Shown: positions 4,689 through 40,111, numbered from the stretch's first letter. The stretch: 40,275 bases of DNA from a virus (IMGVR_UViG_3300024232_000030:1-40275), one strand, 5' to 3'. The notes: a model not told the origin generated them from the sequence alone. Program-made: numbers and translations.

Positions 4689-5247
4689 GCTTCTTCGCCT
4701 TTCGTGTTCGAGCTGTCTCATGTTGAACTGAACGTGCAATACGAATGCCTGTTTGCCCGACTGTTCCGTGGTGTGTCACGTCGTACCCAGTTCTTCGAAC
4801 CGCCTCCTGCACATCAGGGCGCGAAGCGAAGGTTCGCAGGTCGAGTTCAGTTGGTTCTGAAGGAGCTAGGGCGTGTCCGGCCCAACTCTGATCAGGTACA
4901 AGCGCTCCATCGTTGATGAGGCAGATGAGTGCGAAGCACCCCCAAGCTGCTCCAGCGAAGTCGTCATCCTCCGTTCCGAACCGCTGCTTCAACAGGCGAG
5001 CAATCTCCTCTGGATCCCCGTGCGCAGCACGTACGCATTCGATATATCGAGTCTTCGCACTTTCAAGATGCGCCTGGATATGGTTCAGCGTGTCGGAGAA
5101 GGGAAGACCGCGCGTCCAGTTCCATTCACCGTACTTTGTACCGAGCGCATAGCGAGCGGCAAGCCGCCGCAGCGCTACGGACGGGATAAGGTCGTACCGT
5201 GCCGAGACTTGCTCGCTCCTTCTCGCTCCACTTTCAAACGTTTTCAT
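4666..5247 (-). CDS. dATP/dGTP diphosphohydrolase domain protein (DUF5664-type)
   Basis: FESGARR...RYDLIP..ALRRLA..YALGxKYGEWNWxRG..HL signature; GGAGGAG SD before ATG 5247. Confidence 0.8.
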   Translation of the reverse strand: MKTFESGARRSEQVSARYDLIPSVALRRLAARYALGTKYGEWNWTRGLPFSDTLNHIQAHLESAKTRYIECVRAAHGDPEEIARLLKQRFGTEDDDFAGAAWGCFALICLINDGALVPDQSWAGHALAPSEPTELDLRTFASRPDVQEAVRRTGYDVTHHGTVGQTGIRIARSVQHETARTRKAKKHGRRKVR

Positions 5248-5570
5248 TCGCTCTCCTCCGTGCTCTGCACGATGAATTCCGGGGGCAGGGACCACCCGCA
5301 CTCCGTGCACTTGTAGAACATCATCAGTCCGTGTTTGCCCGGGCGTCCTGCGTCTCGCGCGTGCCGGCGAAGCCGGACCCAGCAGTGTACGCTCCCATCC
5401 ATCTGATACATCTCGGCGATGGCCGCAATGAACAGGATCAGGATGCCTGCGGCACATGCGAACATGATCGCGAGGGCGGGAAGCACGACCCACGTAACGA
5501 AGTGATGCATCTTCAGCTCCTCAAAAGGCCCCATCATTCCTTTGGAATGCGTATCGTGCGCAGTGCGCAT
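5244..5570 (-). CDS. membrane protein with C-terminal zinc ribbon
   Basis: Long hydrophobic stretch followed by CTECG. Confidence 0.5.
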   Translation of the reverse strand: MRTAHDTHSKGMMGPFEELKMHHFVTWVVLPALAIMFACAAGILILFIAAIAEMYQMDGSVHCWVRLRRHARDAGRPGKHGLMMFYKCTECGWSLPPEFIVQSTEESE

Positions 5571-5651
5571 GGGGCCTCTTCAAGAGCCGAGTGCAATGCA
5601 CGTTGCAGGGGCTCCGGTTGATCGTGCGAAGCCCCTGCAAGTGCGAAGCAC

Positions 5652-6056
5652 TTACTCGATCGGAACGTACCGAGCGACCTTGCTGCGAGCAGCATAGGTC
5701 TGTCCCGTGTTTGGGTCCTTCCGCTCTTTCTCTGTTGTTACCACAACCCCGATCTCCCGGCCGATCAGTTGATCTGTATCGTCGAGAGTGAAGTCGTCGC
5801 CCTCTCCGCTCGCTTCGAGGAGCTGCCGCGTGCGGAACATCCCCTCTCCGCTCAGCATGAGAAGGTCGAAGAGCTTCCTGCCGTGGTACTCCTCGGCGTC
5901 CGATGGCCCGAAGATTGTCATCTCCAGGTTGGCCATTGGAGTTTTCTTCTCCTTGCTCTCCTTGTACTCGCTCTTGTCGACGCGCACGTGATACACGCCC
6001 TCGGGCACTGGCTCGCCCTTCGGCATATCGCCAAGGCGCGGAGCATTCGGAATCAT
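5652..6056 (-). CDS. DUF669-family single-stranded DNA binding protein
   Basis: VPEGVYHVRV...GRKLFD..DTDQLIGRE pattern; located downstream of the Sak4 gene. Confidence 0.75.
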   Translation of the reverse strand: MIPNAPRLGDMPKGEPVPEGVYHVRVDKSEYKESKEKKTPMANLEMTIFGPSDAEEYHGRKLFDLLMLSGEGMFRTRQLLEASGEGDDFTLDDTDQLIGREIGVVVTTEKERKDPNTGQTYAARSKVARYVPIE

Positions 6057-6073
6057 TACCGTATAGTTACCCT

Positions 6074-6466
6074 CTACTCTCTGTTGCTGTACCCGGTTGG
6101 TCCATAGACCTTCCTCCGGGCTATCCAAGACTGTCGCACGCTTTCCGCTCGGGTGGTCGAGGGCGTTCTTTCGCGGCTACGTCTGGAGTCGTCAGATTTC
6201 CACTCCCTTGTCTTGTTGAGAAGAGGAACGCCCCGTTCTCGAAGCGCTGCGATCCACGCTACTTCAACTCGATGACCTTCGCTCTTACTGTGTAGGATTG
6301 CCTGGACGTGAAAGTCCAAGGGCTCCGTGCATTCGAATAAGGCATTGGTATCGGGTTGGTTCAGGTGCCTCCACGATCTCATGTACGGATTGTTGGTGAC
6401 TCCAACATATCGAATGTGCCCAGCGGGATTCCGGAGGACATATAAGAAGTGCGGAGTGTTTTCCAA
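6074..6466 (-). CDS. GIY-YIG homing endonuclease
   Basis: LYVL..RYVGVT..R..H..E..LLN core; TTG start with AAGGAG SD; inserted between sak4 and the DUF669 gene. Confidence 0.8.
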   Translation of the reverse strand: MENTPHFLYVLRNPAGHIRYVGVTNNPYMRSWRHLNQPDTNALFECTEPLDFHVQAILHSKSEGHRVEVAWIAALRERGVPLLNKTREWKSDDSRRSRERTPSTTRAESVRQSWIARRKVYGPTGYSNRE

Positions 6467-6493
6467 CGTTCATTCTCCTTGTGAGTTTGAAGC

Positions 6494-7405
6494 TTACTTG
6501 CTGACCGTCTGGGGCTGCGCCCCGCTCGTAGGAGCTGTCGCTCCAGTGCTTGCACTTGCACTCTGGTTGCCGGTTGCCTCCTTTGAAGCTGGTTCGAGGA
6601 GTCGCAGTGCGTTGCGATCCCCGCACATATAATCCATCAACGCGCTGATGTTCGGGTTACAACGAAGGGGGAGCCTGGCATAGTCGGCGGGCAGCCGAAC
6701 TCGTGCAGGTGATCCACCTTCACCTTGCGTCACCATCACGTGCTTTCCGGATACGACGCGTAGGCGGACAGTTGCATCGGGCCAACCTGGAACTTCGCGA
6801 GGGAGTTTCTGGCCGGGGAGTTCAGGCGCTGCGAATTGAGGTTCGCCTTCTCCTCCGAAGAGACCTTCCCGTGCGATGATGTAGAGGTGCCCGTGCAGGG
6901 AGAACATCTCTTTGTAGAGCTGTCGCCCTTTCTCAGCGAGAAAACCGTACGCCATCCTCGGATCCTTATGCGCTGCTGGTGTTGCAAGGTCCTCCCAGCC
7001 CTTGAGCTCTGCATACCGCTCGAGAGGGAATTCCCCCCACTGCGTGAGAGAGTCAAGGACGACCGAGCCGAACTCTTCCTGTTCGTACTCGATCTTGCCG
7101 GGTTTCTTCTTCATCTCACGAACGACTTCGATGAGTTCTGCATGATTCTGCACGACGACGAACGGGACTCCATCGCTCTGCAGGCTCAAGAGCCCGTGGG
7201 TTTCACCCAACTCGCATGCAATGACGATTGGATTCTTCCTTCCATCCTTCAGCGTTCGGATGCTGTAGGTCTTCCCTGCACCTCCCGGTCCGTATGCAAG
7301 TACTGTGGCGAAGGTCGCCTTCAGCATGTCAGTACGGAAGAGCTTTGGGAGAGCGTTCCCGCGCCCGGTCCGAGAAGGTTGTGCGAATGAAGGGGCTGTT
7401 GGCAC
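6494..7405 (-). CDS. Sak4-like (AAA_24) ssDNA-annealing ATPase
   Basis: Walker A YGPGGAGKT, Walker B VVLDSLT; neighbours are an exonuclease and an SSB. Confidence 0.8.
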   Translation of the reverse strand: MPTAPSFAQPSRTGRGNALPKLFRTDMLKATFATVLAYGPGGAGKTYSIRTLKDGRKNPIVIACELGETHGLLSLQSDGVPFVVVQNHAELIEVVREMKKKPGKIEYEQEEFGSVVLDSLTQWGEFPLERYAELKGWEDLATPAAHKDPRMAYGFLAEKGRQLYKEMFSLHGHLYIIAREGLFGGEGEPQFAAPELPGQKLPREVPGWPDATVRLRVVSGKHVMVTQGEGGSPARVRLPADYARLPLRCNPNISALMDYMCGDRNALRLLEPASKEATGNQSASASTGATAPTSGAQPQTVSK

Positions 7406-7414
7406 ACGTGCTCC

Positions 7415-7594
7415 TTACTCGGCTTCGCCTTCGTCTTCGATGTCTTCGTCTTCCTCGTCATCGGCTTCGTCCTCGAGGCCCGAGACGAAGGATTCGATCT
7501 TCGCGGCGGCTTCACCGCAGTCTACATCCTCCCCTTTCTCGTACTCGTCTTTAAGGAACGTACTCAGCTCGCTGATGAGATCATCTCTGTCCAT
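7415..7594 (-). CDS. very acidic 59 aa protein
   Basis: 27 Asp/Glu versus 4 Lys/Arg; AAGGAG SD; own upstream promoter. Confidence 0.7.
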   Translation of the reverse strand: MDRDDLISELSTFLKDEYEKGEDVDCGEAAAKIESFVSGLEDEADDEEDEDIEDEGEAE

Positions 7595-7653
7595 GTGCGG
7601 GGTTCTCCTTGCGGTTGTCAACACAGCGGAAATGCGTGTTGAACTCAAAGCCA

Positions 7654-7683
7654 ATTATACATCAAGGTCTTTTGACTTCTCAA
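7654..7683 (-). promoter_or_regulatory. sigma70-type promoter TTGAGA-N18-TATAAT
   Basis: Reverse complement of attata 7654-7659 and tctcaa 7678-7683. Confidence 0.7.
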
Positions 7684-7816
7684 CGTACGGTTCGTGTCTG
7701 GACGTACTCAGCAAATCTTGCGCAACTCATCGACGAGGCTGTCGCCTTGGAGGGCTCGAGCGTCTCTGCGCTCGGCGCTCCGCAAGCGGACGTTCACCGA
7801 GAACGTGCGGAGCATG

Positions 7817-8005
7817 TCAATGCACGTGATCAGGATGGTCGATGACCACCTGAGGAAAGTCCCGAATGATTCTCGCAGTGAAGCACTCCGTGTGTTCGAA
7901 GGGCGGGCGAGTAACTTTGACATTTGGTGGTTGTACATCTAACTCTCCCCATTCAGGATCAGCGTCGTCGAGGAATCTTCCACACGTGAAGCAACGTTTG
8001 GGCAT
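7817..8005 (-). CDS. small zinc-binding hypothetical protein
   Basis: CFTCG and HTEC motifs. Confidence 0.5.
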   Translation of the reverse strand: MPKRCFTCGRFLDDADPEWGELDVQPPNVKVTRPPFEHTECFTARIIRDFPQVVIDHPDHVH

Positions 8006-8015
8006 AGCGTCCCTT

Positions 8016-8294
8016 CTATCCGGCTGGTCTCTTCGTACCCCGAACCGCGTCGAGCATGTCTTTCATGATTTGGGTAGTCTCCTCCCGTGCCTTCGCAGTG
8101 TCCGGGCGAAGCGTCACGATCTGCGTATCGAAGTTCGACAGTTCTACTTCGAGTTTTGCTGGGAGCTCGAGCAACGCCTGATACACTGCCTCCTGCGCAG
8201 TGTACGCTTCGAGGTGAAGGGTATGCTCCTCGCTCTTCCGCGTCTTCTTATCCGTGAGTTTGAGGACCATGAGGTATGCGTTTGCCATCGGCAC
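8016..8294 (-). CDS. hypothetical protein
   Basis: 92 aa ORF with GAGGAG SD. Confidence 0.6.
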   Translation of the reverse strand: MPMANAYLMVLKLTDKKTRKSEEHTLHLEAYTAQEAVYQALLELPAKLEVELSNFDTQIVTLRPDTAKAREETTQIMKDMLDAVRGTKRPAG

Positions 8295-9352
8295 TACTCC
8301 TCTACTGATGCAGGAGCATCAACGCGAAGCCCTTGCGCTCGCTCGATCTGTTCCTGCGCATCATCGACGTAGTCGTTCTTGCGCACGTTGTACATTTTCC
8401 GTCGGACCTCCGTGTCTTTCAGACACAGGTCGCGGAACGCGCATGTCCCGTATCGGAAGCAGTGTTCGGTGTTCTTCGGAAACACGATCTTCCAGTTCTC
8501 TCCGAGCACCACGCGATTGAGCTGCTCGCGAAGGCGGTTGCAGTATTCGTTGAATTCGGCCTCGAACTCCTGGAGCTCCTCTTCCGTCCGGGTGAAGAGC
8601 TCACGTGTGAACTGGGGGATCTTAGTCTTGACGAGCACGTCGATGATCGCGCCACGGATGTAGATCGGCTCGCCGCCCTCTTTCAAGCTTTGCTCGGTGA
8701 GGAATTTCGAGAGCCCGTAGATGTAGGCGGAGAGCTGAACGTCTAGCTCGTACTTGAGGAGATCGCGCGGGTCCATCCTGCCGGCCGTCTTGTAATCGAC
8801 GAGATACAAGCCACCCTTGGCAGTGCTGAGGTTGTCCGCGCGTAAGCGGAGCCAGTTGTTCGTGTCAGTTCCCACCTCGACGAGGCACTCGATCTCCTGG
8901 TTCAGTGGACGCCAGAGCTCACCAGTCTTCGCCCAGTGCGCGACGTAGGCAGGGAGCACGCGGTCGACTATGTCAAGGCATTCTGCAAGGTCCTTGTCTT
9001 CGAATGCTGTACGCGGACCCGCGGACTCCGCGAGCTTCGCACGAGCGACCTCGAGTGCTTGCATTGGGAGAGGAAGTGATGCAATCTCCGCGCGTCGCGC
9101 ATGCGCTTGTACGCTTGCGGGATCTGCAGGATCGAACGGTTCCAGTGCAACTTCCTCGGGCCGAAGCCCGCCGGCGTGGAAGAAAGCGAGGCCTGCATGA
9201 GTAGCCGTCCCGATCTCCAGTGCCGAGCGTTTGCCAGGAGGCTCGAGCCGGGCGATCTTTCCCCAGGCGTAGAGACGCTGGCAGTTCATGAAGTTCTTCA
9301 GACTGCTCTGGTTGATGACAATCGGAACGGTCGTTCGTTCGTTCGCTTTCAT
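8294..9352 (-). CDS. PD-(D/E)xK exonuclease, Cas4/AddB-like with probable Fe-S cysteines
   Basis: N-terminal SSLxxFxxC, GTATH, RADxL, VDYKT and QLSAY motifs; C-terminal CxxxxxCxxxxxC. Confidence 0.85.
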   Translation of the reverse strand: MKANERTTVPIVINQSSLKNFMNCQRLYAWGKIARLEPPGKRSALEIGTATHAGLAFFHAGGLRPEEVALEPFDPADPASVQAHARRAEIASLPLPMQALEVARAKLAESAGPRTAFEDKDLAECLDIVDRVLPAYVAHWAKTGELWRPLNQEIECLVEVGTDTNNWLRLRADNLSTAKGGLYLVDYKTAGRMDPRDLLKYELDVQLSAYIYGLSKFLTEQSLKEGGEPIYIRGAIIDVLVKTKIPQFTRELFTRTEEELQEFEAEFNEYCNRLREQLNRVVLGENWKIVFPKNTEHCFRYGTCAFRDLCLKDTEVRRKMYNVRKNDYVDDAQEQIERAQGLRVDAPASVEE

Positions 9353-9546
9353 CGTACTCCCGCCTGACGAGTAAGTGCAGTGGTGAGTTCTGTTAAGACG
9401 TGAATCTTCAAGCACCGCCAGTCGTGAAAGCGAAGTGGGTAGCGGTCGTCCTCTCCGAACTCCATCGCTGGGAGAAGGTCGAGAATGAGGTATGCCCGCG
9501 ACTTGTCAGTTGCGTCGATTTCCTGCTTGCAACCTGCACAGGTCAC
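9349..9546 (-). CDS. small zinc-finger-like protein
   Basis: GTG start overlapping upstream TGA; CAGC and HDWRC motifs. Confidence 0.5.
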   Translation of the reverse strand: MTCAGCKQEIDATDKSRAYLILDLLPAMEFGEDDRYPLRFHDWRCLKIHVLTELTTALTRQAGVR

Positions 9547-9869
9547 TTCGACACTCCCATCTGTACGCCTTCGGCATCTGTATGAGGAGTTCCTGCGCGT
9601 TCTTCGTGGCCGGCAGTCAGTACGCACTGTATGAGGCCTTCTTTGTACGGGCACATGCCGGCGAGGAAACGTGGATCTTTTAGACGCTCCGGTTGCTTTA
9701 GCGCTTCAAGCTCTGCACGTTGCTCTTCGATCTCTGCGATTGCATCGGCGATGTCACTCGACATCTTATGTGCGTCTTCGGCAGAGAGGTTATTGTACTT
9801 GCGTTTGAGGATGCGGATTGTTGCTTCGACCCACATCCGGTAGGACTTGAGACTGATGACGTTGCTCAT
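9543..9869 (-). CDS. hypothetical protein
   Basis: Translationally coupled ORF. Confidence 0.55.
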   Translation of the reverse strand: MSNVISLKSYRMWVEATIRILKRKYNNLSAEDAHKMSSDIADAIAEIEEQRAELEALKQPERLKDPRFLAGMCPYKEGLIQCVLTAGHEERAGTPHTDAEGVQMGVSK

Positions 9870-10252
9870 GCGGCTTGACCCCCGTACTCTCGAAAGAGCT
9901 TGAGCACTTTTTCACTTACGATTCTCTCATTCTCTCCGCATGCATAGCAACGGACGTATTGCCTGCGCGAACCGTCCTCACCGAGCATGTTGACCCACTT
10001 CCGAGTCTCATCCTGCCAGAACGCGATCTTCCGAGCGTAGAGATCCTCTGCGAGGTTCAAGCTCTGGAGCACTCGCTCATGCTCTCGCATGACAATGCTG
10101 TACAGGGCTTCCTTGGCAGTCGTGCCCTCAGGTACACGTCCCAGCGCACGGTACTTCCGCGAGGTTTGCAAGAAGCCTAAGCGCACAAGCAGGCGTGCGT
10201 ATTGCTCTGCGGTCATTGTTGCACGTTCACGTGCTGGTGATTCAGCAGTCAT
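9866..10252 (-). CDS. hypothetical protein
   Basis: Translationally coupled ORF. Confidence 0.55.
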   Translation of the reverse strand: MTAESPARERATMTAEQYARLLVRLGFLQTSRKYRALGRVPEGTTAKEALYSIVMREHERVLQSLNLAEDLYARKIAFWQDETRKWVNMLGEDGSRRQYVRCYACGENERIVSEKVLKLFREYGGQAA

Positions 10253-10584
10253 TTATCAAGCCTCTCACTCAAACCCGTCTGCATCCCATGCATGATGAGC
10301 GTCGATGCGAGTCGTGCCGAGCACTTGCAGTTTGCAATCCACTCCTTGACGATGTGCATGATGATGAAGCAGCGAAGGGCGTCGAGTTCCTTCGGATCGC
10401 CGGTGCGAGCGTCGCGAATTTGCTTAAGCACGGTTGCTCGCTCCATCTCACTGAGAAGGGTGTCGTGATCTCCTCCGCCTATGGCGGTTGTAACTGCATA
10501 CACGGCATCACACACGTCGTTCGCTCCGAGTAGGGACCAAACCGTCTCAAGGGCGAAGTCAGCTTTCTTGCAGAGTTCACACAT
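10249..10584 (-). CDS. hypothetical protein
   Basis: Start at MCELCK with AGGAG SD. Confidence 0.55.
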   Translation of the reverse strand: MCELCKKADFALETVWSLLGANDVCDAVYAVTTAIGGGDHDTLLSEMERATVLKQIRDARTGDPKELDALRCFIIMHIVKEWIANCKCSARLASTLIMHGMQTGLSERLDK

Positions 10585-10595
10585 GCTCTTCGCTC

Positions 10596-10844
10596 CTAGA
10601 TGGGAAGGTCCGCGTCGGTAAGAGGAGCAGGCTCTTCCTGCTGGGGCTTTGCCCCTTGCAGAGCATCTGCTTCGAAGAGGTGGTACTCTGTTCCGAAAAT
10701 ATTGAGCATGAGCTTCCCGCTCCATCGCCCTCCACCATCTTGCCAGAGCGTAACGCGTCCGCATGGTGCCCAGAATGCTTTCGCAGCACCAGGACGCACG
10801 ATCTTGTTCTTCACTTCAAGCGTTAGATTCGGTTTCCCCGCCAT
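10596..10844 (-). CDS. small beta-rich protein with SSB-like acidic tail
   Basis: WAPCGRVTLW..SGKLML core; C-terminus LTDADLPI resembles the DDIPF SSB tail. Confidence 0.5.
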   Translation of the reverse strand: MAGKPNLTLEVKNKIVRPGAAKAFWAPCGRVTLWQDGGGRWSGKLMLNIFGTEYHLFEADALQGAKPQQEEPAPLTDADLPI

Positions 10845-11679
10845 TGGCATTCGCCTCCTCTTGGAGAAGTTGCATGAGTTGTAGCCTGGCGCTGTCTTCG
10901 ACAGCATCGGTGGTTTCTGCACTTGCATCTGCTGCAGAACGCAGTTTCGCGATTCCGCGTCCCGCGAGGTCCTCGGCAACATCTGCAATCCTCCCGTGCT
11001 TCGGACGCACATGCCCGGTGAGAGGGTGTTGCCAACCGTTCACATCCTTGCTGCGCACGGAAAGTGCGATGCGAAGCATCCCTGCTTCCAGCGCGAGCTT
11101 CACCCAGCCCATGCCTCCGGAGAGGAGCCAGACTCCGATTTGCAGGGGATCGGGTACGTCGAAGATTGGCGGCGCACTGTCAGGGTAGAGGAGACCTTGA
11201 GCCTCGGGCTCCGCCAGTTCAGGGTCGAGAATGACCTTCCCTGTACTCTCGTCGATGTAGTCGAGGGCTTCGAGTTCGATCGCGGCGGATTCGACTTGAT
11301 CCTCCGGCACGTGGAGCGTTTCGCGAAGGAACTTGGCAACCGTGCAGCGTTGGCCGTACGTAGTCCAGTGCCGCAGAAGGTGCTCCGCGTACGCGTTGAC
11401 GTATTCCTCGCTCCATTCAAGAGCGTACGTGTTTAGCGTCCAGAGCTTGTGCGAGGAGCTCTGCTCCGGTACGAAGTGAAAGGCGCAGGCGCCCTTCTCT
11501 TGTTCTTCAACTCGGAGCTCTTCGGGCTCGAGGCCTTCGCTCTCGATTGAGGGGCCAGCGAGGCGGACCGTGCGAAGCCAGAGGTCGGGATTCTGTTCGT
11601 TCTGCGCCCAGATGTCCGACCGCTGGCGCAGGTGCTCAAGCAGTTCCTCACGTTCCCACCAGGTCAAGCGCATACTCAT
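10816..11679 (-). CDS. hypothetical protein
   Basis: 287 aa acidic ORF, coupled to neighbours. Confidence 0.6.
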   Translation of the reverse strand: MSMRLTWWEREELLEHLRQRSDIWAQNEQNPDLWLRTVRLAGPSIESEGLEPEELRVEEQEKGACAFHFVPEQSSSHKLWTLNTYALEWSEEYVNAYAEHLLRHWTTYGQRCTVAKFLRETLHVPEDQVESAAIELEALDYIDESTGKVILDPELAEPEAQGLLYPDSAPPIFDVPDPLQIGVWLLSGGMGWVKLALEAGMLRIALSVRSKDVNGWQHPLTGHVRPKHGRIADVAEDLAGRGIAKLRSAADASAETTDAVEDSARLQLMQLLQEEANANGGETESNA

Positions 11680-11891
11680 GTCCTGCTCACCGTGAAAGAG
11701 TCGAAGGGGAGCACTGCATGATCAGTCCCTGCGGCAGTGCTCACGCCGAGCTTCGTGAAGATGCGGTTCGCATCCTCTACCGAGAGCACGCGGATGAATT
11801 CAACATACAACTTCTGCTGCCGGCTTTCGAAGTAGATGACGGAAGGAAGCCCGAATGCGTGCACGTCGCCGTGCGTGATGTTGATTCTCAC
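11676..11891 (-). CDS. hypothetical protein
   Basis: GTGA and ATGA overlaps. Confidence 0.55.
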   Translation of the reverse strand: MRINITHGDVHAFGLPSVIYFESRQQKLYVEFIRVLSVEDANRIFTKLGVSTAAGTDHAVLPFDSFTVSRT

Positions 11892-12214
11892 TTGATCAGG
11901 CCTCCTCTCTTCAGCGCGTTGACGTAGTTTGTTACTTGCACCCGCCGAACCTTCGCCCGGTACTCTCGCACGGCATCAGGAACATCCGTCCAATCGTCAA
12001 TTGCCAGGTACTCGAGCAACGCCTTGTACTTCGTCAGCATGCTCGTACCCATCAAGCTCATGCGGAGCATCTGCCAATCGCCGTTCTGCACTGCATCCCG
12101 GATCTCCTCACGCGAGAAGCTCCCGAAGATGAGCTTCTGCCAGTCGGCACTCGTCGGAGGTGCGGTGAGAAGCGTGAGCGCGGAATGTATTCGTGCTGGT
12201 GCATCTTGATCCAT
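11888..12214 (-). CDS. hypothetical protein
   Basis: 108 aa ORF ending QVTNYVNALKRGGLIK. Confidence 0.6.
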   Translation of the reverse strand: MDQDAPARIHSALTLLTAPPTSADWQKLIFGSFSREEIRDAVQNGDWQMLRMSLMGTSMLTKYKALLEYLAIDDWTDVPDAVREYRAKVRRVQVTNYVNALKRGGLIK

Positions 12215-12276
12215 GAAGAGATTTTACTTCGAATTGCGGATTGAAATCTACGTACGTGGGCTGCTTCGCAGCCCCG

Positions 12277-12417
12277 TCAGTGCACGAGCAGCTGGAGCAA
12301 GTGCACTAGGCACAGGAGCAAGATCGCCATCCACGCAGGACATTTCTGCGGGTTGACGGCAGAGCCGAGTGCGATTGCCAGTGCACCGAGAACGAGGATC
12401 GTGAGAATGAGCATCAT
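12277..12417 (-). CDS. 46 aa two-TM membrane protein (below ORF-track cutoff)
   Basis: Hand translation MMLILTILVLGALAIALGSAVNPQKCPAWMAILLLCLVHLLQLLVH; GAGGTG SD; ATGA overlap. Confidence 0.6.
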   Translation of the reverse strand: MMLILTILVLGALAIALGSAVNPQKCPAWMAILLLCLVHLLQLLVH

Positions 12418-32290: not shown

Positions 32291-32511
32291 CATACAGTCC
32301 GAGCAAGAAATTCACCGCGACTGAGGATGATGTCGAGGTCCTTGAGAAGGGTGAAGCCTTCCTCTTGAACGAGGAGGACCTCGAGATCGGACGACAGCGT
32401 ATCGCGCAGGGTGAAGCACCGGCGGATGTTGCGAAGGATTTGGCACTTGAGTCTGTATCGCTCCTTCCTGCGCCGGACGCTTCGAAGCAGAAACCTAAGG
32501 AGGAAGAATGA
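32287..32511 (+). CDS. small acidic protein coupled to the ART gene
   Basis: GTGA overlap; acidic composition. Confidence 0.6.
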   Translation: MTYSPSKKFTATEDDVEVLEKGEAFLLNEEDLEIGRQRIAQGEAPADVAKDLALESVSLLPAPDASKQKPKEEE

Positions 32512-32651
32512 CAACACCATCAACACCAAAGCCGTCAGCACCACCTACTCCAGCCCCAACGAAGAGTACTCCGCCAACTTCCCATCCGAGCGGTGGAGCA
32601 CCAACGTCTCCATCCGCGCCTGGGACTTCGTCGCCGAAGGGCGGGAGCTAG
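32508..32651 (+). CDS. 47 aa Pro/Ser/Thr-rich peptide
   Basis: Hand translation MTTPSTPKPSAPPTPAPTKSTPPTSHPSGGAPTSPSAPGTSSPKGGS; AAGGAGG SD. Confidence 0.55.
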   Translation: MTTPSTPKPSAPPTPAPTKSTPPTSHPSGGAPTSPSAPGTSSPKGGS

Positions 32652-32654
32652 CCG

Positions 32655-34985
32655 ATGCCAGGGCGTCCGCATCACTCCGACAAGATGAAGAGCTGCGTTG
32701 ACAAGCTCACTGCCAAGGGCAAGAGCGAGGCGGACGCCTTTGCAATTTGCACCGTGTCTCTCAAGAAGGCCGGGGAGCCGATCTTCGAAGCAGCTGCCTC
32801 TGGCAGCCCGGAAGAGGAAACGCAGCTTCGTGCTGCTGCTTGGCCAATGGAAGCCGGCCACGTTCGCGGTTCGCAGGGTGGGCCTTCAGCCTCTCACTCC
32901 GACGCAAGCGCTGCGCATGCTAAGGCAAGTGCCGCACACGAGGCAGCTGCAGCCGCAATTCGCTCGAAGAGTGCGAACGCCGCGGAGCAGCAGAGCAAAG
33001 CCTTTGCCGCAACCCGTAAAGCGCACAGCGAGAGCATGAGCGCCGGGTTCGCAGAACAGTTCGCAGCGAAAGCTGCAAAGAGCTACGCGGGGATGGCCGC
33101 CAAGGCGGAGACTGCTGGAAGCGCTGCTCTCTTCCACGAGATGGCAGCAACGTACCACGGAAGCGCGGCGCACGCACACATGAACGAGCCGAAGACGTCT
33201 CCCGAGCTCACCGCTGCTGAGGTTGCAGACGACGTAGTGCTTCAAGCACTAGAAGCAGGAGATGCCCACTTCGAGGAGATTCGTGCCCTCACTGGGAAGT
33301 CGCGTATCGAGAAAAAGGATGGGAAGGACTTCCTCGTCGTCCCAGTCACAGCTCTTCGCGAAGGCGTAATCCATGCAGTGAATGCAAAAGTGCCCGAGTT
33401 CGTTCCTGCAAGCGTACTCGCGATCGCTCCGAGTACGTGGAACGGGCGACCGCTCGTGCTCGGGCACCCAACATATCAAGGGATTCCCATCAGCGCCAAT
33501 CACCCGCGCATCCTCGAAGAGCGATCCTTCGGCCAGGTCTTCAACTCTCGCTACGCGAACAAAGAGCTCCTGATGGAGGCGTGGATAGATCAAGAGAAGC
33601 TCGAGACGCTCGATGCAAAACTGCTCCAGCGCTTGCGCGACGAGGATCAAGTTGAAGTGAGCGTCGGTGCGCTCACACGCACTGCGAAGTCTGCTGGCGT
33701 ACATGGTGGGAAGAAGTTCTCCGCCGTGTGGAAAGATATTCTCTCCGACCACCTCGCATTCCTCCCGGACGCTCGAGGAGCTTGCTCCGTCGAGATGGGC
33801 TGTGGAACATTCCGTGCGGCAGCTGCTGCAGAAGGAGAACCGATGAACATCTTCGATCGGGTCAAGGCGCTCATCGCCAAGGCTCGAGAGGCTCCGGCGG
33901 AGGAAATCTCCGAGGACGAGCTTCGCGTGGCAATTAGTAAGACTGAATCAGACAGTGATCAGCGCAAGGCGTTGCTCGAGGCACTTCGTGCCATGGAACC
34001 GGGCGTGTACGACATCGTCGCGATGTACTCCGACAGGATCATCTACCCAACCTACGAAGGTGGGAAGACCTGCTACTACGTCCGGAAGTACACAGGCGAT
34101 GCAGCGTCCGGCTACAAGATCGATGGGAATCGGACGGAAGTTGAACTCGTGTCGGATTGGCAACCCGTCGCTGCGGCCAGTCGCCAGATGGACTGCCCGG
34201 AATGCGATGGCGCAGGTAAGATGAAGACCGGAAAGGACTGCCCGACGTGCGATGGCACCGGACAAGTCCCTTACGCAAAGCGTGCAGCAGAAGGCACACC
34301 CACGGATCCGCCCGCTCCGGTTCCGACGCCCTCTGCTTCAGCAGTAGCAAGTGCAGAATCAGTTGGAGATGCAAGCGCAGAAGTGAAGCCAGCACCCAAG
34401 GCACTCGAACACGCAAACGACGCGGCGAAGCCGCCGTGCGGATGCAAATCAGGAGAACCAATGAGCAAAGAAACACGTGAAGAGGTGATCAAGGGCCTCG
34501 TGGAGAGCAAGTACAGCGGCTTCACGACAGGCGACGAGAAGATGCTCGAGGCTGCAAGCGACGAGCGTCTCGAAGGGTTCCGCGTCGCAGCGGAAGCCCG
34601 GAAGAACGAGAGCGAGCAGAACCGCGCTGCCGCCACCCGCGAGCTCACGACCGAAGACTTCATGAAGGTCGCGCCGCCGGAGATCAAGAGCCTTCTCGAC
34701 AAGACGCAGAAGGCGGAAACGGAACGCAAGGGCTTCCTCGTCACGGAGCTCAAGGCGTGCCAGAGCGAGTACAGCGAGGCTGAACTCTCGAACATGAAGC
34801 TCGAGGATCTCGAGCGGCTTGCTCGCGTGTCAGGTGCGGATGTTCCGCCGGCTGACTACACTGCACGTGGCCTCTCGCGCTTCCCGAGCAAGGAAGACCG
34901 CGCGAAAGACGTGTACGCGAATCCGCCGAATCCGTATAAGCTCGCGATCGCCAAGGCAAAGGGCGAACAGCCGAAAGCTTCGTAG
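32655..34985 (+). CDS. prohead protease (DUF2213) fused to scaffold regions
   Basis: WNGRPLVLGHP, VEVSVG and DHLAFLP..GACS...GCG motifs; helical C-terminus. Confidence 0.88.
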   Translation: MPGRPHHSDKMKSCVDKLTAKGKSEADAFAICTVSLKKAGEPIFEAAASGSPEEETQLRAAAWPMEAGHVRGSQGGPSASHSDASAAHAKASAAHEAAAAAIRSKSANAAEQQSKAFAATRKAHSESMSAGFAEQFAAKAAKSYAGMAAKAETAGSAALFHEMAATYHGSAAHAHMNEPKTSPELTAAEVADDVVLQALEAGDAHFEEIRALTGKSRIEKKDGKDFLVVPVTALREGVIHAVNAKVPEFVPASVLAIAPSTWNGRPLVLGHPTYQGIPISANHPRILEERSFGQVFNSRYANKELLMEAWIDQEKLETLDAKLLQRLRDEDQVEVSVGALTRTAKSAGVHGGKKFSAVWKDILSDHLAFLPDARGACSVEMGCGTFRAAAAAEGEPMNIFDRVKALIAKAREAPAEEISEDELRVAISKTESDSDQRKALLEALRAMEPGVYDIVAMYSDRIIYPTYEGGKTCYYVRKYTGDAASGYKIDGNRTEVELVSDWQPVAAASRQMDCPECDGAGKMKTGKDCPTCDGTGQVPYAKRAAEGTPTDPPAPVPTPSASAVASAESVGDASAEVKPAPKALEHANDAAKPPCGCKSGEPMSKETREEVIKGLVESKYSGFTTGDEKMLEAASDERLEGFRVAAEARKNESEQNRAAATRELTTEDFMKVAPPEIKSLLDKTQKAETERKGFLVTELKACQSEYSEAELSNMKLEDLERLARVSGADVPPADYTARGLSRFPSKEDRAKDVYANPPNPYKLAIAKAKGEQPKAS

Positions 34986-35012
34986 TAGGCGCGTTGCGCC
35001 GGAGGACAAGAG

Positions 35013-35456
35013 ATGTCAATCACCAAGTATCCGCCGAATACGATTTGGCTCGGCGGTCCAAGGACGGAGATCGGGGACATCCCCGCAAAGGAAATCATCA
35101 CGCCCGGCATGTTGGTCGAGCGGACGAGTGATTCCAACGTCCACAAATGGCAGAAGCATAGCGTTGCCGGGGGAACGGGAACTGCGTTCGCGACCGAGCA
35201 GAGCATGCTGAACAAGACAGTTGATGATACGTACGCTGCAGGCGACTTGATGGAAGTCACCGAAGGTGGACACGGCACCAACTGGTGGGCAATCATCGCG
35301 TCTGGTGCGAACATCGCACGTGGCGCAAAACTCGAGAGCGCAGGGAACGGAAAGCTGCGGGCGTACACGTCCGGCGTGCAGGCTTTCGTCGCACTCGAAG
35401 CGAAAGACAACTCCGCTGGTCCCGGTGACGCGCGGATCCGAGTGGAGGTGGCGTAG
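35013..35456 (+). CDS. head decoration/cement protein
   Basis: Position before MCP; ITPGMLV, YAAGD and LESAGNGKL motifs. Confidence 0.75.
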   Translation: MSITKYPPNTIWLGGPRTEIGDIPAKEIITPGMLVERTSDSNVHKWQKHSVAGGTGTAFATEQSMLNKTVDDTYAAGDLMEVTEGGHGTNWWAIIASGANIARGAKLESAGNGKLRAYTSGVQAFVALEAKDNSAGPGDARIRVEVA

Positions 35457-35458
35457 CC

Positions 35459-36508
35459 ATGAACTTCGATACACTTCGCAATACAGCGACAAACGCGAAG
35501 AGCCCGATCGCCGGAGCGCTCCTTCGCAGCTTGCAGGAGACAGGGGATATTTCGATTCCCTCACTCCGTGCACTCTCTCCCCTGAGTGACAAAGCTCAGG
35601 TGCTCGTCGATCAGGCCGTGGTTGAAGTGGGACTTGAACGTCTCACGTTCGCCGCGGACCTGATGGCCGAGGGCCTGACGTACGATCTCCCCGATCCCAT
35701 GTCCGTGACGCAACTCGAATGGGAGGACATCGGGAAGACGGGCGGCGCGCAACGCACGATGAGTCCTTCGGCTCGCGGAGAGAATCAGCTCCCGAACCGT
35801 ACGATTCATCGCCTTCCGATCTACCTCACGACTGATGACTTCTCGCTCGGCATCAGGACGCTCAAGATGTCGCAGCGCGTCGGGCAGCCGCTCGACCTCA
35901 CGCTCGTGAAGCAGGCAACGCGCCGTGTGAACGAGGCGATCGAGGATGCGGCGATCAACGGTGCGAGCACGGTCGACGGCTTCGCACTGCAGGTCGGCGG
36001 GTACGCAGCGCCTGGGCTCCTGAATGCCCCAAGCGCAAACGTGCAAAGCTTGTCAGTTGACTGGACCGGCGCGAACACGGTGGGCACCACCGGTCCGGCG
36101 ATGGTGAATGACGTGCTGGCAGCAATCGGCAAGGCACAGGCGGATAAGAAGTACGGTCCTTACAACCTGTACCTCGGCACGAACGCAGGGAACCTGATCG
36201 AAGGCGACTTCAAGGTCAACACGACGAACACAATTCGTCAGCGACTTGAAGCGATCACCGCCGGCGGTCGTCCGATCCGCATTCGCGTTGCGGATATGTT
36301 CCCGAACACAAGCACTGGAACGCAGTTCGCACTCGTGCAGATGACGAGTGACGTTGTCGAAATGGTCACTGGGCAGGCTCCAACAGTCATCCCCTGGACC
36401 AGCATCGACGGCTTCACCCTCTACTGGCTCGTGCTCGCGATCATGGTCCAGCGCGTGCGTGCAGATCAGGACGCGAACTCGGGAATCGTGCTCGGAGTGA
36501 AGAGCTAG
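35459..36508 (+). CDS. major capsid protein (HK97 fold, encapsulin-like family)
   Basis: DxAVVEV..RL..ADL, LPI..DF...R.L..S and YGPY.LY motifs; gene position. Confidence 0.85.
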   Translation: MNFDTLRNTATNAKSPIAGALLRSLQETGDISIPSLRALSPLSDKAQVLVDQAVVEVGLERLTFAADLMAEGLTYDLPDPMSVTQLEWEDIGKTGGAQRTMSPSARGENQLPNRTIHRLPIYLTTDDFSLGIRTLKMSQRVGQPLDLTLVKQATRRVNEAIEDAAINGASTVDGFALQVGGYAAPGLLNAPSANVQSLSVDWTGANTVGTTGPAMVNDVLAAIGKAQADKKYGPYNLYLGTNAGNLIEGDFKVNTTNTIRQRLEAITAGGRPIRIRVADMFPNTSTGTQFALVQMTSDVVEMVTGQAPTVIPWTSIDGFTLYWLVLAIMVQRVRADQDANSGIVLGVKS

Positions 36509-36545
36509 GCGGCTTCGCCCAAGCACACAAGCGGAACGTAAGTGG

Positions 36546-36575
36546 AGGTAGGAGCGCAGGCTCCTACTTCTTTCC
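36546..36575 (+). terminator. rho-independent terminator after MCP
   Basis: AGGTAGGAGC-GCAG-GCTCCTACTT plus pyrimidine tail. Confidence 0.6.
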
Positions 36576-36592
36576 TCTTAGGAGAACGAACA

Positions 36593-37015
36593 ATGGCAGA
36601 CGCAAAAGACGCACCGGTTCCTTCCGGCGCCACTCCTTCTCAGGGTCCAGGCGACGCGAAGGCAGAGGTCACGGGAAATCCGAACGCGAACGTTCCGGGA
36701 AAGCCCGAGACGCAGGGCGGACCGGATAAGAATCCTCCGCCGGGCAGCATGAACAACCCGATCCCTCAGCAGATTCCGAAGGGCAACACCCCTCAGCACA
36801 AGGTCACGGAGTTCGCAGGGAATCCTGGCGGTTCCTTTCAAGCGACCGGGGATTTCGGCGACACGCCCGGAACCGTAACGGCTGACGGGCAGCCAGTGCA
36901 GGTTGCTCGGTGGAGCGCCAACAGCATCAAGGGAACGCTGCCGGCATCCTACAAGCGCGGTGGCACCGTGCAGATCAAGACCGCGTCCGGACACACGATC
37001 GATCACAAGTACTGA
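36593..37015 (+). CDS. Pro-rich protein with C-terminal IPT/TIG (Ig-like) domain
   Basis: G..FG..PGTVT..G..V..WS.NSI..TLP..G.V.I.T pattern. Confidence 0.65.
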   Translation: MADAKDAPVPSGATPSQGPGDAKAEVTGNPNANVPGKPETQGGPDKNPPPGSMNNPIPQQIPKGNTPQHKVTEFAGNPGGSFQATGDFGDTPGTVTADGQPVQVARWSANSIKGTLPASYKRGGTVQIKTASGHTIDHKY

Positions 37016-37040
37016 GCGCAGGGCGCAGCGCAAGCGCACA

Positions 37041-37070
37041 GGGGAGGTGTGCAGAGCACCTCCTCCTTTT
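37041..37070 (+). terminator. rho-independent terminator-like hairpin
   Basis: GGAGGTG...CACCTCC followed by TCCTTTT. Confidence 0.5.
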
Positions 37071-37081
37071 CGAGGAGAAGC

Positions 37082-37570
37082 ATGCTCACTTTCACTTCCT
37101 TCAACAATCCCTTCCGCAGTGTTGCGCTGCGAACGATGTTCTCTAAAGGAGATACGTTCGAGAACGACCTGCTGAAGCTGATTTTCAATGCCACGGCAAT
37201 TGCGAACATCGCAGACAATGCCGCGACGTCACCGATCACGAATATCGGGGTCTCCCTCCACACTGCGGATCCTGGCGAGACGGGAACGCAGACCACGAGT
37301 GAGACGTCGTACACCTCTTACGCACGCGTAGCGGTTGCCCGGACAAGCGGTGGGTGGACGGTTACGAACAACAGTACGTCGCCCGTTGCCAACATCGACT
37401 TCCCACAGTGCACGGGCGGTTCGGCCACGATCACGCATTGCGGGTTTGGCACGAACACCACGACCGGTGCAGGAAAGCTCTTGTACAGCGGAACGGTCAC
37501 TCCGAACATCAGCGTGAGCAACGGCGTCACGCCGCGCCTCACGACCGCCACGACAATCACCGAGGACTAA
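37082..37570 (+). CDS. virion structural protein (tail-fibre-associated type)
   Basis: FENDLLKLIFN, VSLHTADPG, YARVAV and IDFPQCT motifs. Confidence 0.7.
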   Translation: MLTFTSFNNPFRSVALRTMFSKGDTFENDLLKLIFNATAIANIADNAATSPITNIGVSLHTADPGETGTQTTSETSYTSYARVAVARTSGGWTVTNNSTSPVANIDFPQCTGGSATITHCGFGTNTTTGAGKLLYSGTVTPNISVSNGVTPRLTTATTITED

Positions 37571-37577
37571 CGCACAC

Positions 37578-38285
37578 ATGCTGCTGCTGGCTGCTCCTAC
37601 GTACGACGGAAGGCGCTTCAACTCCACTGCGATTGCCCTGGGCATCATTCACAGCAGGGAGCCTGTGCTTCTCCGTGACGAACCGAGCAGCCTGCTAGCA
37701 GCAAACGTTAATGCCGCGTGGTGCCAGATGCTTAACCTTCGCGGAAAGAAGGACATCACGCACTTCCTCCTTCTGCATGCAGATGTAGATCTACAGCACG
37801 AACCGCAGTGGATCAACATCCTGCTCGATGAGATGCAGTACGTTGGTGCAGATGTCCTCGCAGCGGTCATTCCTCTGAAAGATGCCACAGGCATCACGAG
37901 CACTGCGATCGAGGGAGAGAGCCTTTGGGCGCCACGGCGCTTCACGCTCCGGGAGATCTACTCGGAGAAACCTGCAACGTGGACCGAGCCGGGCCTGCTT
38001 ATCAACACCGGCTGCATGCTCGTGGACGTTCGAGCACCGTGGGTCGAGGACATCTGCTTCACGATCAAGGACGATATCATTCGTGATGCACGAGGACGCT
38101 TTCAACATGTCGTTGAAGGCGAGGATTGGAACTTCTCGAGGCAGTGTCATGAAAAGTCCTTGCGGGTGTTCGCAACAAGGAAAATCCCGATCGACCACGT
38201 CGACGGGCACACGCGCTACTCGAACACAAGCGCGTGGGGTACGTGGACGACTGACGAGAAGAACAGGGAGGCAGCACATGTCTGA
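37578..38285 (+). CDS. GT-A fold glycosyltransferase-like protein
   Basis: THFLLLHADV (DxD-like), TGCMLV and EDWNFS motifs. Confidence 0.7.
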   Translation: MLLLAAPTYDGRRFNSTAIALGIIHSREPVLLRDEPSSLLAANVNAAWCQMLNLRGKKDITHFLLLHADVDLQHEPQWINILLDEMQYVGADVLAAVIPLKDATGITSTAIEGESLWAPRRFTLREIYSEKPATWTEPGLLINTGCMLVDVRAPWVEDICFTIKDDIIRDARGRFQHVVEGEDWNFSRQCHEKSLRVFATRKIPIDHVDGHTRYSNTSAWGTWTTDEKNREAAHV

Positions 38286-38562
38286 GAACGGTCAAGAAGC
38301 ATCTGAACCGCGGATCGCCGAAGCAGCTGGTTCAGTGTCGACTTCAAGCGGGTTTGGAAAGCAGACGAATCGTGCACGGCAGATGGAGAAGGCAATGGTC
38401 GCCGCCATCAACTACTTGCAGGGCAAAGGCGTCTCGATGAGCGACGACACCGCAGGGCTCTATCGAGAGTTTCAACTCCGTGCACGGAACGCCGCAGGCA
38501 AGAACGAGACGGTGAACTTCGATGAGATGTATGAGGAACTCGGACCGAAGAACAAGGAGTAA
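38278..38562 (+). CDS. hypothetical protein
   Basis: Start MSENG behind GGAGG. Confidence 0.6.
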   Translation: MSENGQEASEPRIAEAAGSVSTSSGFGKQTNRARQMEKAMVAAINYLQGKGVSMSDDTAGLYREFQLRARNAAGKNETVNFDEMYEELGPKNKE

Positions 38563-38566
38563 CACA

Positions 38567-40111
38567 ATGCGAAATTTACGCTGCATCGTTTTCACACTTG
38601 CGCTGGTTTTCGGTGCAGCGTTCAGCGCATTTGCGCAGCCGCAAGCACCGGTTGTACGCACGCCGACGCCGCGTTCATTGGTTGCTGGTCAAACTTTTAC
38701 GATCATGTGGGACGCGAATGCTGATCTTGTGACCGGTTATCGTGTTTCGATCGGGACTGTCAGTCATGTGTATACGATCACGGCTGATGTTCCTGCAAAC
38801 GTGACGCAATATCAGTATACGGCGACGGCGAACGCGACATACTTTGTAGCAGTGCAAGCCTTGCGGAATGCAGAAATTAGTAATTACTCTGCCGAAGCAC
38901 ATACGGCGTCCGTTCCTGCATCTCCGGATTGTAGTTTTGTGCCGCCGCTGCAGACTGTCGTTGATGATGTTGGCACAACGTGGAGTCTAGGCACATCATT
39001 GACCGGTCCGAATAACTCATTCGCGATCATGGCGAAGCCTGAAGGTGCGGCGTCTCCATCTCAAATTCCGAACACATACGGCCGGAAGATCGGTTGGATT
39101 ACAGGCGGGTTATACATCATCGGAGATGACCCTACGGACATCTGGTATAAGTGGAACGGGACGACATTTACAAATGTTGCAGCTCCGGCCGGATGCACCG
39201 TTCCGCCGCCGTGCACATATACGCTCGGTTCGCCGGCAAGTACGATTGCTGCGAACGGCGGTAGCACGACAGTTCCGGTGACGGTCAATATTTCAACGTG
39301 TGTTTCAACAACATCAACGTCACAGAATTGGTTGCAAGCCGCGCCAGCTTCAGCAACTGGGAACTTCTCTGCAACGGTTACGGCTACTGCAAATCTGAAT
39401 ACTGCGCAGAGAACGGCGGATCTAATTGTTAGTGGTGTGCGAAGAACAATCACACAGCTAGGTTCGACAGCCCCACCGCCGTGCACGTTTTCAATTAGTC
39501 CACCGTCCGGAACTATTCCGGCAGCAGGCGGCACGGTAACAAGTCCGGTTGTTGCGTCGGATACAACGTGCAATGCGGCACCGACATCGAATCAACCGTG
39601 GATGACCGTGTCTCCGCCTACGGCTGTTGGTAACTTCGTCTTAGCGGCAACAGCTACGGCAAATACGGCACCGTCTGTAAGATCAGCGACAGCTACGGTC
39701 GGTAATGCATCAGTTGTTGTGACGCAAGCAGCAGCAACGACGTCAGTATGTCAAACTGCAATTCCTGCAATTACAATTCCGAGTAAAGGCTGGGATACTC
39801 GGATTAGTAAATCGGCGGATCCCGGCGGCTCGGTTCAGTTTTCAATTCGTTTCACGAATCCGGCTGTGCTCGGATCAACGGTGCCGCCGCCACGACGAAT
39901 CACAACAGTTGAAGCGCAATTGCAACAAAATGGCGTTGCGATCTTCAAGACGTTTATTCAAGTGCAGCCGACAAGCGACAGCTTGATCAAGCTGACCGGC
40001 TTGACGTATACCGGCACGACGATCGGACGGTATGACCTTCGAGTCATTGCAACAGATGAATCCGGCTGTGTTGGCAAGACGGCGACAACGCGTAACGTAG
40101 ATATTCAGTAA
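38567..40111 (+). CDS. secreted FN3 plus two BACON-domain protein
   Basis: Sec signal ending AFA-Q; FN3 WD..GYRV..Y..Y.VAV.A..S.YS; two CT...GG...C...W...AN...RxA...V.Q units. Confidence 0.8.
   Translation: MRNLRCIVFTLALVFGAAFSAFAQPQAPVVRTPTPRSLVAGQTFTIMWDANADLVTGYRVSIGTVSHVYTITADVPANVTQYQYTATANATYFVAVQALRNAEISNYSAEAHTASVPASPDCSFVPPLQTVVDDVGTTWSLGTSLTGPNNSFAIMAKPEGAASPSQIPNTYGRKIGWITGGLYIIGDDPTDIWYKWNGTTFTNVAAPAGCTVPPPCTYTLGSPASTIAANGGSTTVPVTVNISTCVSTTSTSQNWLQAAPASATGNFSATVTATANLNTAQRTADLIVSGVRRTITQLGSTAPPPCTFSISPPSGTIPAAGGTVTSPVVASDTTCNAAPTSNQPWMTVSPPTAVGNFVLAATATANTAPSVRSATATVGNASVVVTQAAATTSVCQTAIPAITIPSKGWDTRISKSADPGGSVQFSIRFTNPAVLGSTVPPPRRITTVEAQLQQNGVAIFKTFIQVQPTSDSLIKLTGLTYTGTTIGRYDLRVIATDESGCVGKTATTRNVDIQ

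Follow-up and report, generated by a model that had tools for sequence, protein, structure and literature searches.

A genome-wide excess of GNA-triloop DNA mini-hairpins in a soil phage, possibly a footprint of template switching

The record IMGVR_UViG_3300024232_000030 is the whole virus record of a tailed phage from soil metagenomes (40,275 bases, 64% complete; called the window below), and the subject of this analysis is the excess in it of the short hairpin-forming word GCGAAGC. This excess is the tip of a wider bias toward DNA hairpins with GNA-type triloops (N, any base). The spectrum of preferred loops fits DNA, not RNA, thermodynamics, and the bias is limited to a phage clade: most of the phages that share a recombination module with this one are biased and the relatives that share only its capsid are not. 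The explanation that we favor, with moderate confidence, is that the hairpin excess represents a lineage-specific mutational footprint of short-range template switching in the phage's own DNA replication or repair.

Abundance of the hairpin core

The core, read as GCGAAGC or GCTTCGC, was counted 64 times (39 on the plus and 25 on the minus strand), which bears out the more than 50 copies of the original prediction, made by a model from the DNA alone, and makes it the most frequent 7-mer of the window. The roughly eight copies expected there correspond to an order-0 value (7.2) and are too few, as an order-2 Markov model gives 24; the assumed G+C content of about 60% was likewise somewhat high (57.8% measured). 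We used two codon-preserving nulls, shuffles of synonymous codons with the following base either kept or not, and these give 18.0 and 25.0 cores (maxima 31 and 32, 60 shuffles each), so that the excess persists at 2.6-3.6-fold and not at 8-fold, and codon or amino-acid composition is ruled out as its cause. The 11-mer GTGC-GAA-GCAC is present at all eight predicted positions, always on the plus strand (binomial p 0.008), against 0.08-0.10 copies in the codon-preserving shuffles. Other frequent words are TGCGAAGCA (19 copies) and CGCGAAGCG (12 copies), and 17 of the 30 copies of TGCGAAGC have a G directly before them.

The flanks of the core pair with each other. Five longer stems quoted in the original prediction (AAGTGC-GAA-GCACTT and those at 11068, 12258, 16975 and 25777) have the letters given for them, and a third stem pair is formed at 43 of the 64 cores through all four pair types, compared with a permutation mean of 18.6 and a maximum of 30 in 5,000 permutations. 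The fourth pair is formed at 32 of 64 (19.0 expected) and the excess is gone by the sixth. Contigs from independent runs carry several of the hairpin copies without any difference (for example 21957-22479 and 25231-25565); because these contigs are identical, an assembly artefact is ruled out as the cause of the hairpins.

Loop and stem preferences

When perfect stems of at least 4 base pairs (bp) were counted for 32 triloop classes, the five most enriched were the four GNA loops and AAA, with observed and null counts of 49 and 10.6 for GAA, 32 and 10.5 for GCA, 25 and 7.6 for GGA, 13 and 4.0 for GTA and 12 and 3.7 for AAA; none of these observed counts was attained in 200 shuffles. GNA triloops with such stems number 119 against 33 under the null. 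Within genes there are 98 against 31 (84 against 29 with an independent automatic gene set), and between genes 21 against 2, a ratio that may be overstated because the intergenic null preserves base composition only. C-closed GNA loops (71 against 14.6), C-closed ANA loops (20 against 5.4) and CTTG loops (8 against 2.1) are in excess, and the reversed ANG loops are scarcely enriched (36 against 27.1). ANA and CTTG are tight DNA loops too. A C-G closing pair is favored, GNA loops on a GC-stem of at least 3 bp being found 70 times against 16.0. The enrichment of GNA loops rises with the length of the perfect stem (1.2, 1.4, 2.2, 3.6, 5.4 and 7.2-fold for 1 to 6 bp) and requires continuity: stems interrupted at pair 2 or 3 show no enrichment (1.17 and 0.94), and the value for perfect 5-bp stems compares with 1.4-fold for stems with four of five pairs.

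These preferences are those of mini-hairpin DNA, d(GCGNAGC), as described in PMC13037366 (statements on this and the other cited papers refer to the parts of them that were consulted). Of the 64 triloops only GNA forms the mini-hairpin, with GAA the most stable and the RNA versions far weaker, and in vitro d(GCGNAGC) folds on three pairs alone and withstands 3'-exonuclease. The window shares with it the loop, the preference for C-G closure, here on a GC or CC stem, and the rank of GAA as the strongest loop. The structural constraint claimed in the original prediction is in this way supported at the level of DNA. The natural sites described in the same source, namely the G4/St-1/alpha3 origins, RSF1010 ssiA and the N4 promoters, differ in being one to three sites with fixed roles, whereas here there are more than 100 dispersed, unconserved copies; such words are moreover described as rarer than chance in natural DNA (PMC13037366).

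Strand, coding context and position along the genome

GNA hairpins are enriched 3.7-fold on the plus and 3.6-fold on the minus strand, and 3.3-fold in the mRNA sense and 4.1-fold in the template sense. The general bias has no strand polarity, which is limited to the exact 11-mer. Inside predicted genes lie 48 of the 64 cores, in all three frames, and 29 of the 64 are mRNA-sense. Since the loop spectrum is of the DNA type and both strands and orientations are equally enriched, the cause acts on DNA. The enrichment is 9.9-fold between genes, 3.8-3.9-fold in the early genes and 2.1-2.2-fold in the structural genes, and hairpin density varies about fourfold along the genome.

The comparison with N4 in the original prediction does not hold. 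The hairpins have the C-GNA-G loop and the 5-bp stems of N4 early promoters, of which N4 has three, in the first 10% of its genome (PMC4496689), whereas the 119 hairpins here are spread over both strands. No gene of the size of the N4 virion RNA polymerase was seen in near-complete relatives (longest frames at most 1,346 amino acids in 20-kb pieces of G006, G007 and G009, against 3,500 for the polymerase; the present record is 64% complete), and the window has near-consensus sigma70 promoters, so that hairpin promoters for a virion polymerase are largely refuted. The sigma70-type promoters, with 10-11 of 12 matches, are at 21397-21369 (-), 25387-25416 (+), 16293-16264 (-) and 13907-13878 (-).

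It is quite unlikely, in our estimate, that the 11-mer and its near copies are protein binding sites that lie atop the general bias, either for a dimer on GTGC-N3-GCAC or for a NusG paralogue on an ops-like hairpin of the non-template strand. The number and the single polarity of the exact copies point in this direction, as do the G preceding TGCGAAGC, the tandem with an 11-nt period and the position of sites upstream of two sigma70-like promoters (the array at 21445-21479 is upstream of the one at 21397-21369). The Bacteroides opsX consensus YGCGNAGCR also fits the commonest 9-mers of the window (PMC11685472). However, the ops and opsX elements recognized by RfaH and UpxY are in the non-template strand of operon leaders and work with a NusG paralogue (PMC11685472), whereas the hairpins here are mostly genic and of mixed orientation, with GAA on the template strand, the wrong one for ops, in six of the eight 11-mers; the NusG domain PF02357 was not found in this record and five relatives, of which two are 90% complete or more, though the host may have a paralogue. 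We do not regard the hairpins as an ops set. The flanks, furthermore, covary through all four pair types instead of keeping their letters, and five relatives have only 0-4 copies of TGCGAAGCA per record.

Distribution among relatives

Two sets of loci were examined. The first comprises 91 terminase or capsid loci (of 142, the 51 shorter than 9 kb having been dropped; some are redundant), and the second 16 loci that share the exonuclease or the Sak4-like annealase of the recombination module (of 42, without duplicates, self matches and loci below 4 kb). Pooled GNA counts are 815 against 848 under the null for the first set, where 1 of 91 loci reaches twofold, and 262 against 169 for the second. 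Because the locus sets sample different regions of the genome, whole records were compared as well. The ratio is 2.64 for this phage; among records that share the module it is 2.2 for G011, 1.94 for G006 (which overlaps G011 at 98%), 1.81 for G010, 1.48 for G007, 1.42 for G008 and 1.23 for G009, with 1.27 for the distant G003, and among records that share the capsid only it is 1.12 for G002, 0.98 for G004 and 0.91 for G001. With a codon-aware null applied to genes, G011, G006, G010, G005, G007 and L181 are above all 25 shuffles, and G009, L185, G003, G002, G004 and G001 are not.

In the relatives, the genes downstream of the module include a primase and a family-A polymerase that has a UDG-like domain (L150:15540-18182), and gene order suggests that the polymerase and primase of this phage are past the left end of the record. 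Between polymerase and primase, L150 has a conserved 246-amino-acid gene without an assigned function (18196-18936). The genomes are mosaic, as a comparison of 25871-37570 with G001-G004, G006 and G009 shows: the capsids closest to that of the window (76-79%) are found in phages without the module or with a distant form of it, and the capsids of the module relatives are 28-54% identical. The less enriched structural arm, together with its module-poor capsid kin, suggests a module swap.

An origin of the bias in the host, through a repair or replication process or through DNA composition, and not in the phage module, appears improbable. Related phages probably often share hosts, and G005 is enriched with no module seen in it; against this, the strength ranges over 0.7-2.6 among the module-sharing records and over fourfold within this one genome, and the relatives bring their own family-A polymerase and primase.

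Other viruses gave no excess of the array. The tandem 11-mer matched 12 records and a control with reversed loops 17, and none of the 12 had a hit among this phage's proteins, so a universal "attractor" role across viruses is not supported. Six of the matches (L220, L223, L225, L226, L227 and L230) come from unrelated viruses, among them giant-virus bins with a G+C content of 31-36%, with non-coding tandem repeats that contain the 11-mer, in a number not above the control.

Strain differences and turnover

One sister-strain contig from run X3 (481 nt, depth 3, about 6% divergent, with 19 of 27 listed coding differences in third positions) has in the 42-nt intergenic gap 15241-15282 exactly four differences, all of them inside the hairpin. 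At 15277-15279 TTC is replaced by GAA, an exact inversion of the loop whose chance is about 1e-5 per site, and the change at 15281 breaks one pair of the arms. A single inter-strand template switch would convert the X3 variant into the perfect hairpin of the window and the reverse path would take two events, the direction being given by parsimony only. In a second place, transversions at 23859, 23861 and 23863 of a strain contig shift a GNA loop to the opposite strand and complete a 3-bp stem, which fits a switch plus one extra point change and is a weaker candidate. It comes from a table of 40 of the 357 differences, so that further cases may exist. The X3 contig also differs in the loop at 15123 (GTA to GAA, still GNA). 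At 15357-15363 it has six clustered changes that alter three residues and form a new 4-bp stem with an AGA-type loop not found in the window. The original prediction took the covariation of the flanks to suggest selection; the covariation is there, but template switching also creates it, and one strain variant carries precisely that signature.

Individual hairpins turn over. In strain pairs of relatives (93-98% identity) the arms diverge at 26 of 608 positions (4.3%) against a background of 3.9%, and at 12 of 408 (2.9%) against 2.9%, and strain-private hairpins make up 34 of 86 with GNA loops and 99 of 303 with other loops. No sign of purifying selection on individual hairpins is seen in these close relatives. 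Among 12 hairpin sites of the window in four conserved genes, four recur in any homologue, in at most 3 of 20 homologues.

We regard as unlikely a diffuse selection for mini-hairpins in single-stranded DNA, which would be interchangeable, block exonucleases, exclude single-stranded DNA-binding protein (SSB) or mark places of priming or annealing for primase, Sak4 and exonuclease, so that their number would matter and not their place. The same loop spectrum speaks for it, and the trait tracks the replication module. Mini-hairpins are also found at primase sites, withstand exonuclease and are poor ligands of SSB (PMC13037366). The hairpins are also accommodated on conserved residues through synonymous choices, with the recurrence just given, and a preference for triloops alone could mean a reader protein. 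A priming role or a leading- or lagging-strand role should, however, give a strand bias and none is seen, the divergence of the arms is not slowed, the density varies along the genome as noted, and the hairpin at 23978 has been lost in one strain. Rather unlikely, in turn, is a combined scheme in which the clade would mark its genome with interchangeable GNA mini-hairpins that primase, SSB, Sak4 and exonuclease read as a "self" code independent of position, comparable to Chi but based on shape; the polymerase would write and refresh the marks through template switching, and the 11-mer would be their high-affinity form.

Stop codons and the RNA level

Each of the nine stop codons listed in the original prediction has a core at most 12 nt away. 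Its description of copies "often abutting" stops is true of these 9 of the 64 cores, while 48 are inside genes, and its statement that most read GCUUCGC in the mRNA is true of seven of the nine, with a p of only 0.18. Nine of the 16 intergenic cores are within 12 nt of a stop, where 2.7-4.6 would be expected (p 0.0002; 0.006 without ribosome-binding zones). REP and BIME-type repeats (repetitive extragenic palindromes and bacterial interspersed mosaic elements) are short dispersed palindromes that also often occur past stops, REPs being extragenic copies of one 20-40 nt consensus. The stems studied here, unlike these, lie mostly in coding DNA and have no more than 7-11 nt of consensus in common.

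RNA elements, that is, ribosome termination structures, terminators or stabilizers of 3' ends, are plausible only for the stop-adjacent subset and very improbable as an explanation of the whole. The proximity to stops speaks for them, other short stems are also found past stops in the window, and stable structure just past stop codons is general in bacteria (PMC7518266). Ribosome termination structures are similar in having a stem a few bases past the stop where the next gene is at least 25 nt away, but they have no sequence motif (PMC7518266). They would cover at most 9-11 of the copies here, mostly weak RNA folds. Only two of the nine stop-adjacent segments fold better than shuffles (z score below -2), terminator-like sites at 10-27 kb are at chance level (17 against 14.5) with none of the 17 being a U-tract terminator with a GAA/TTC loop, and the hairpins have no Rfam match; nor could RNA elements account for the 98 coding hairpins or the DNA-specific loop spectrum. 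In the records of 12 relatives there are 0-1 stop-adjacent cores per record, against 8 here in the same comparison, and cores at orthologous stops are not conserved except for scattered ones past the SSB gene in a few relatives. The adjacency to stops is real and peculiar to this phage, and the subset is possibly selected. A genome-wide punctuation signal, as originally proposed, is not supported, given the location of most copies in genes, the equality of strands and orientations, the turnover of single hairpins at the background rate and the lack of this adjacency in relatives.

Evaluation of the template-switching explanation

Template switching is the standard account of an excess of perfect inverted repeats (PMC5941160). 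It yields homogenized arms and inverted spacers (PMC8604942), and it is favored by stable loops, the correction of arms with loop inversion having been called its strongest support (PMC8794818). In our own reading of the yeast table of PMC8604942, 4 of the 4 inverted 3-nt spacers are of the GNA type. The resemblance to template switching or quasi-palindrome correction (PMC5941160, PMC8604942, PMC8794818) lies in short perfect inverted repeats that rise with arm length, including in coding DNA, and in spacer inversion. The differences are that the present bias is specific to GNA and ANA triloops with stems of 3-7 bp and is genome-wide in one phage clade, whereas the yeast spacer inversions needed arms above 9 bp (PMC8604942), and the consulted parts of these papers describe no loop-specific genome signature such as this. 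Full-text searches of the open-access literature brought up no paper whose title or opening abstract lines concern a genome-wide GNA-triloop bias in a phage.

The hairpin bias is most likely the outcome of a process akin to template-switch correction, with mini-hairpins as its nuclei. During a short single-stranded phase of a nascent or template strand, a GNA loop would snap shut; the polymerase would then use one arm as the template for the other, which would make the stem perfect and in some cases invert the loop. Such a process would confine the excess to the tightest DNA loops (GNA, C-closed ANA and CTTG) with C-G closure favored, as is observed, and the loop inversion of the X3 contig would be exactly one such event, with parsimony for its direction. 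Most products would be near-neutral, persist where codons permit and decay at the ordinary rate, and selection may retain a minority just past stops as mRNA stems. The agent would be the replication module of the clade, with its family-A polymerase and primase.

Several observations weigh against this explanation. The one clear loop inversion comes from one contig of depth 3, for which there is no outgroup, and close pairs of relatives had 0 loop inversions in 1,787 differences (51,740 columns). Multi-base arm corrections at triloops equaled those of a mirror-repeat control (8 and 8), and the scan for template switches over 6 family pairs and 12 control pairs was negative. The power of the turnover test is limited, because the relatives compared are only 1.4-2.2-fold enriched. 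C-closed GNNA tetraloops, which equal GCGAAGC in stability in vitro (PMC13037366), are not enriched in the window (10 against 8.9), nor is the tetraloop GCGAAAGC, a departure from mini-hairpin DNA, and stability alone does not explain this gap. The residues under hairpins are as conserved as the average (0.536 and 0.536, 28 sites), with no preference for variable residues among these sites, and conserved and accessory early genes are similarly enriched (3.9 and 3.75); from this equality and average conservation, a relaxed protein constraint is not visible. Two of the 16 module-sharing loci have no excess (0.7 and 0.9), the structural fragment G005 has a ratio of 2.07 with no module seen in it, and the gene for the family-A polymerase is outside this record. 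The 8:0 polarity of the 11-mer, its 11-nt tandem and the stop adjacency of intergenic cores are not predicted by pure mutation, and together they are hints of a subset that has been selected or locally duplicated. A mutation bias and weak selection for hairpin number, finally, are indistinguishable with these data.

Individual copies and genomic neighborhood

The coordinates of the individual copies are given in Table 1. We predicted 79 genes with a script based on codon scores and ribosome-binding sites plus calling by hand, the majority without a family match. The left arm, on the minus strand, encodes QueD, MazG, a dATP/dGTP diphosphohydrolase, an SSB-like protein, a Sak4-like annealase, a PD-(D/E)XK exonuclease, QueC and a topoisomerase IB, and the right arm, on the plus strand, encodes the terminase, portal, capsid and neighboring genes.

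Table 1. Location of hairpin copies and related features in the window
Feature	Position	Strand	Remark
All 119 GNA-triloop hairpins with perfect stems of at least 4 bp	3484..40177		68 on +, 51 on -; densest at 10-30 kb
11-mer GTGC-GAA-GCAC	4929..4939	+	within the dATP/dGTP diphosphohydrolase gene
Core 5626 and 6-bp-stem hairpin 5639-5653 (11-mer 5641)	5626..5653	+	overlaps the stop of the SSB-like gene
Recombination module shared with biased relatives	5652..9352	-	SSB-like DUF669 5652-6128, Sak4-like annealase 6494-7405, PD-(D/E)XK exonuclease 8294-9352
7-bp-stem GAA hairpin	12258..12274	-	directly past stop 12277; RNA fold z -4.2
Core GCGAAGC	13432..13438	+	close to stop 13445
Perfect 5-bp-stem GAA hairpin	15272..15284	-	at stop 15283; differs in the strain contig
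5-bp-stem GAA hairpin	16975..16987	+	between stop 16989 and the following ribosome-binding site
Three related units, 11-nt period (11-mers 21447 and 21469, degenerate middle unit)	21445..21479	+	after stop 21479
11-mer 22072 in a 5-bp stem	22071..22083	+	ahead of a ribosome-binding site
11-mer	22330..22340	+	overlaps the stop of the topoisomerase IB gene
Weaker template-switch candidate	23857..23866		strain transversions at 23859, 23861 and 23863
Core	24293..24299	-	past stop 24290
Intergenic 11-mer	25338..25348	+	upstream of the sigma70-like promoter 25387-25416
11-mer	25492..25502	+	within a predicted gene
Core	36512..36518	-	past stop 36508 of the major capsid gene

QueD, QueC, MazG and the dATP/dGTP diphosphohydrolase (3895-5247 and 12611-13309) belong to a 7-deazaguanine pathway, to which the relatives L143 and L150 add GTP cyclohydrolase I and a radical-SAM gene. 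A transglycosylase was not identified in general family scans of the window and the relatives, in which no dedicated profile was used, and in the literature on 7-deazaguanine modification we found no connection to hairpins. The topoisomerase IB carried by the phage (22340-23128) is at the end of the leftward arm, and a head-module gene adjoining the portal (31025-32290) has an ADP-ribosyltransferase domain. The 493-nt non-coding gap 16239-16731 is a possible replication origin; it contains tracts rich in purines, others rich in A+T, and a site resembling a promoter. Two adjacent genes have an identical C-rich word of 16 nt ahead of their start codons (1495-1520 and 1983-2013). The most depleted 4-mers of the whole window are CTCA/TGAG and TCAG/CTGA (z about -6.5), with GACTC/GAGTC also low, which possibly reflects the avoidance of restriction sites. 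The relative L150 has two adjacent PEP-CTERM genes (3592-5301).

Among cultured phages there is no close relative (Sak4 about 30% identical), and no plasmid match was found for the phage. A BACON-domain protein gives a weak lead to Acidobacteriota as host, its score of 0.86 being below the acceptance bar. The sole match in a bacterial genome, L199 of a Saccharibacteria bin, is a phage-like contig, and no RNA data sets were among the records listed as holding phage sequence.

Implications

If the template-switching explanation is true, the replication module of a phage leaves a loop-specific mutational signature in its genome, in which natural hairpins rank in much the same order as in in vitro chemistry, and the clade would be a natural system in which to ask which loops nucleate template switching and why triloops do so but equally stable tetraloops do not. 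It would also follow that in phage genomes neither covarying stems nor palindromes near stops need be products of selection. Module swaps may be datable by the signature, the structural genes of this phage being less marked and their closest kin having no bias.

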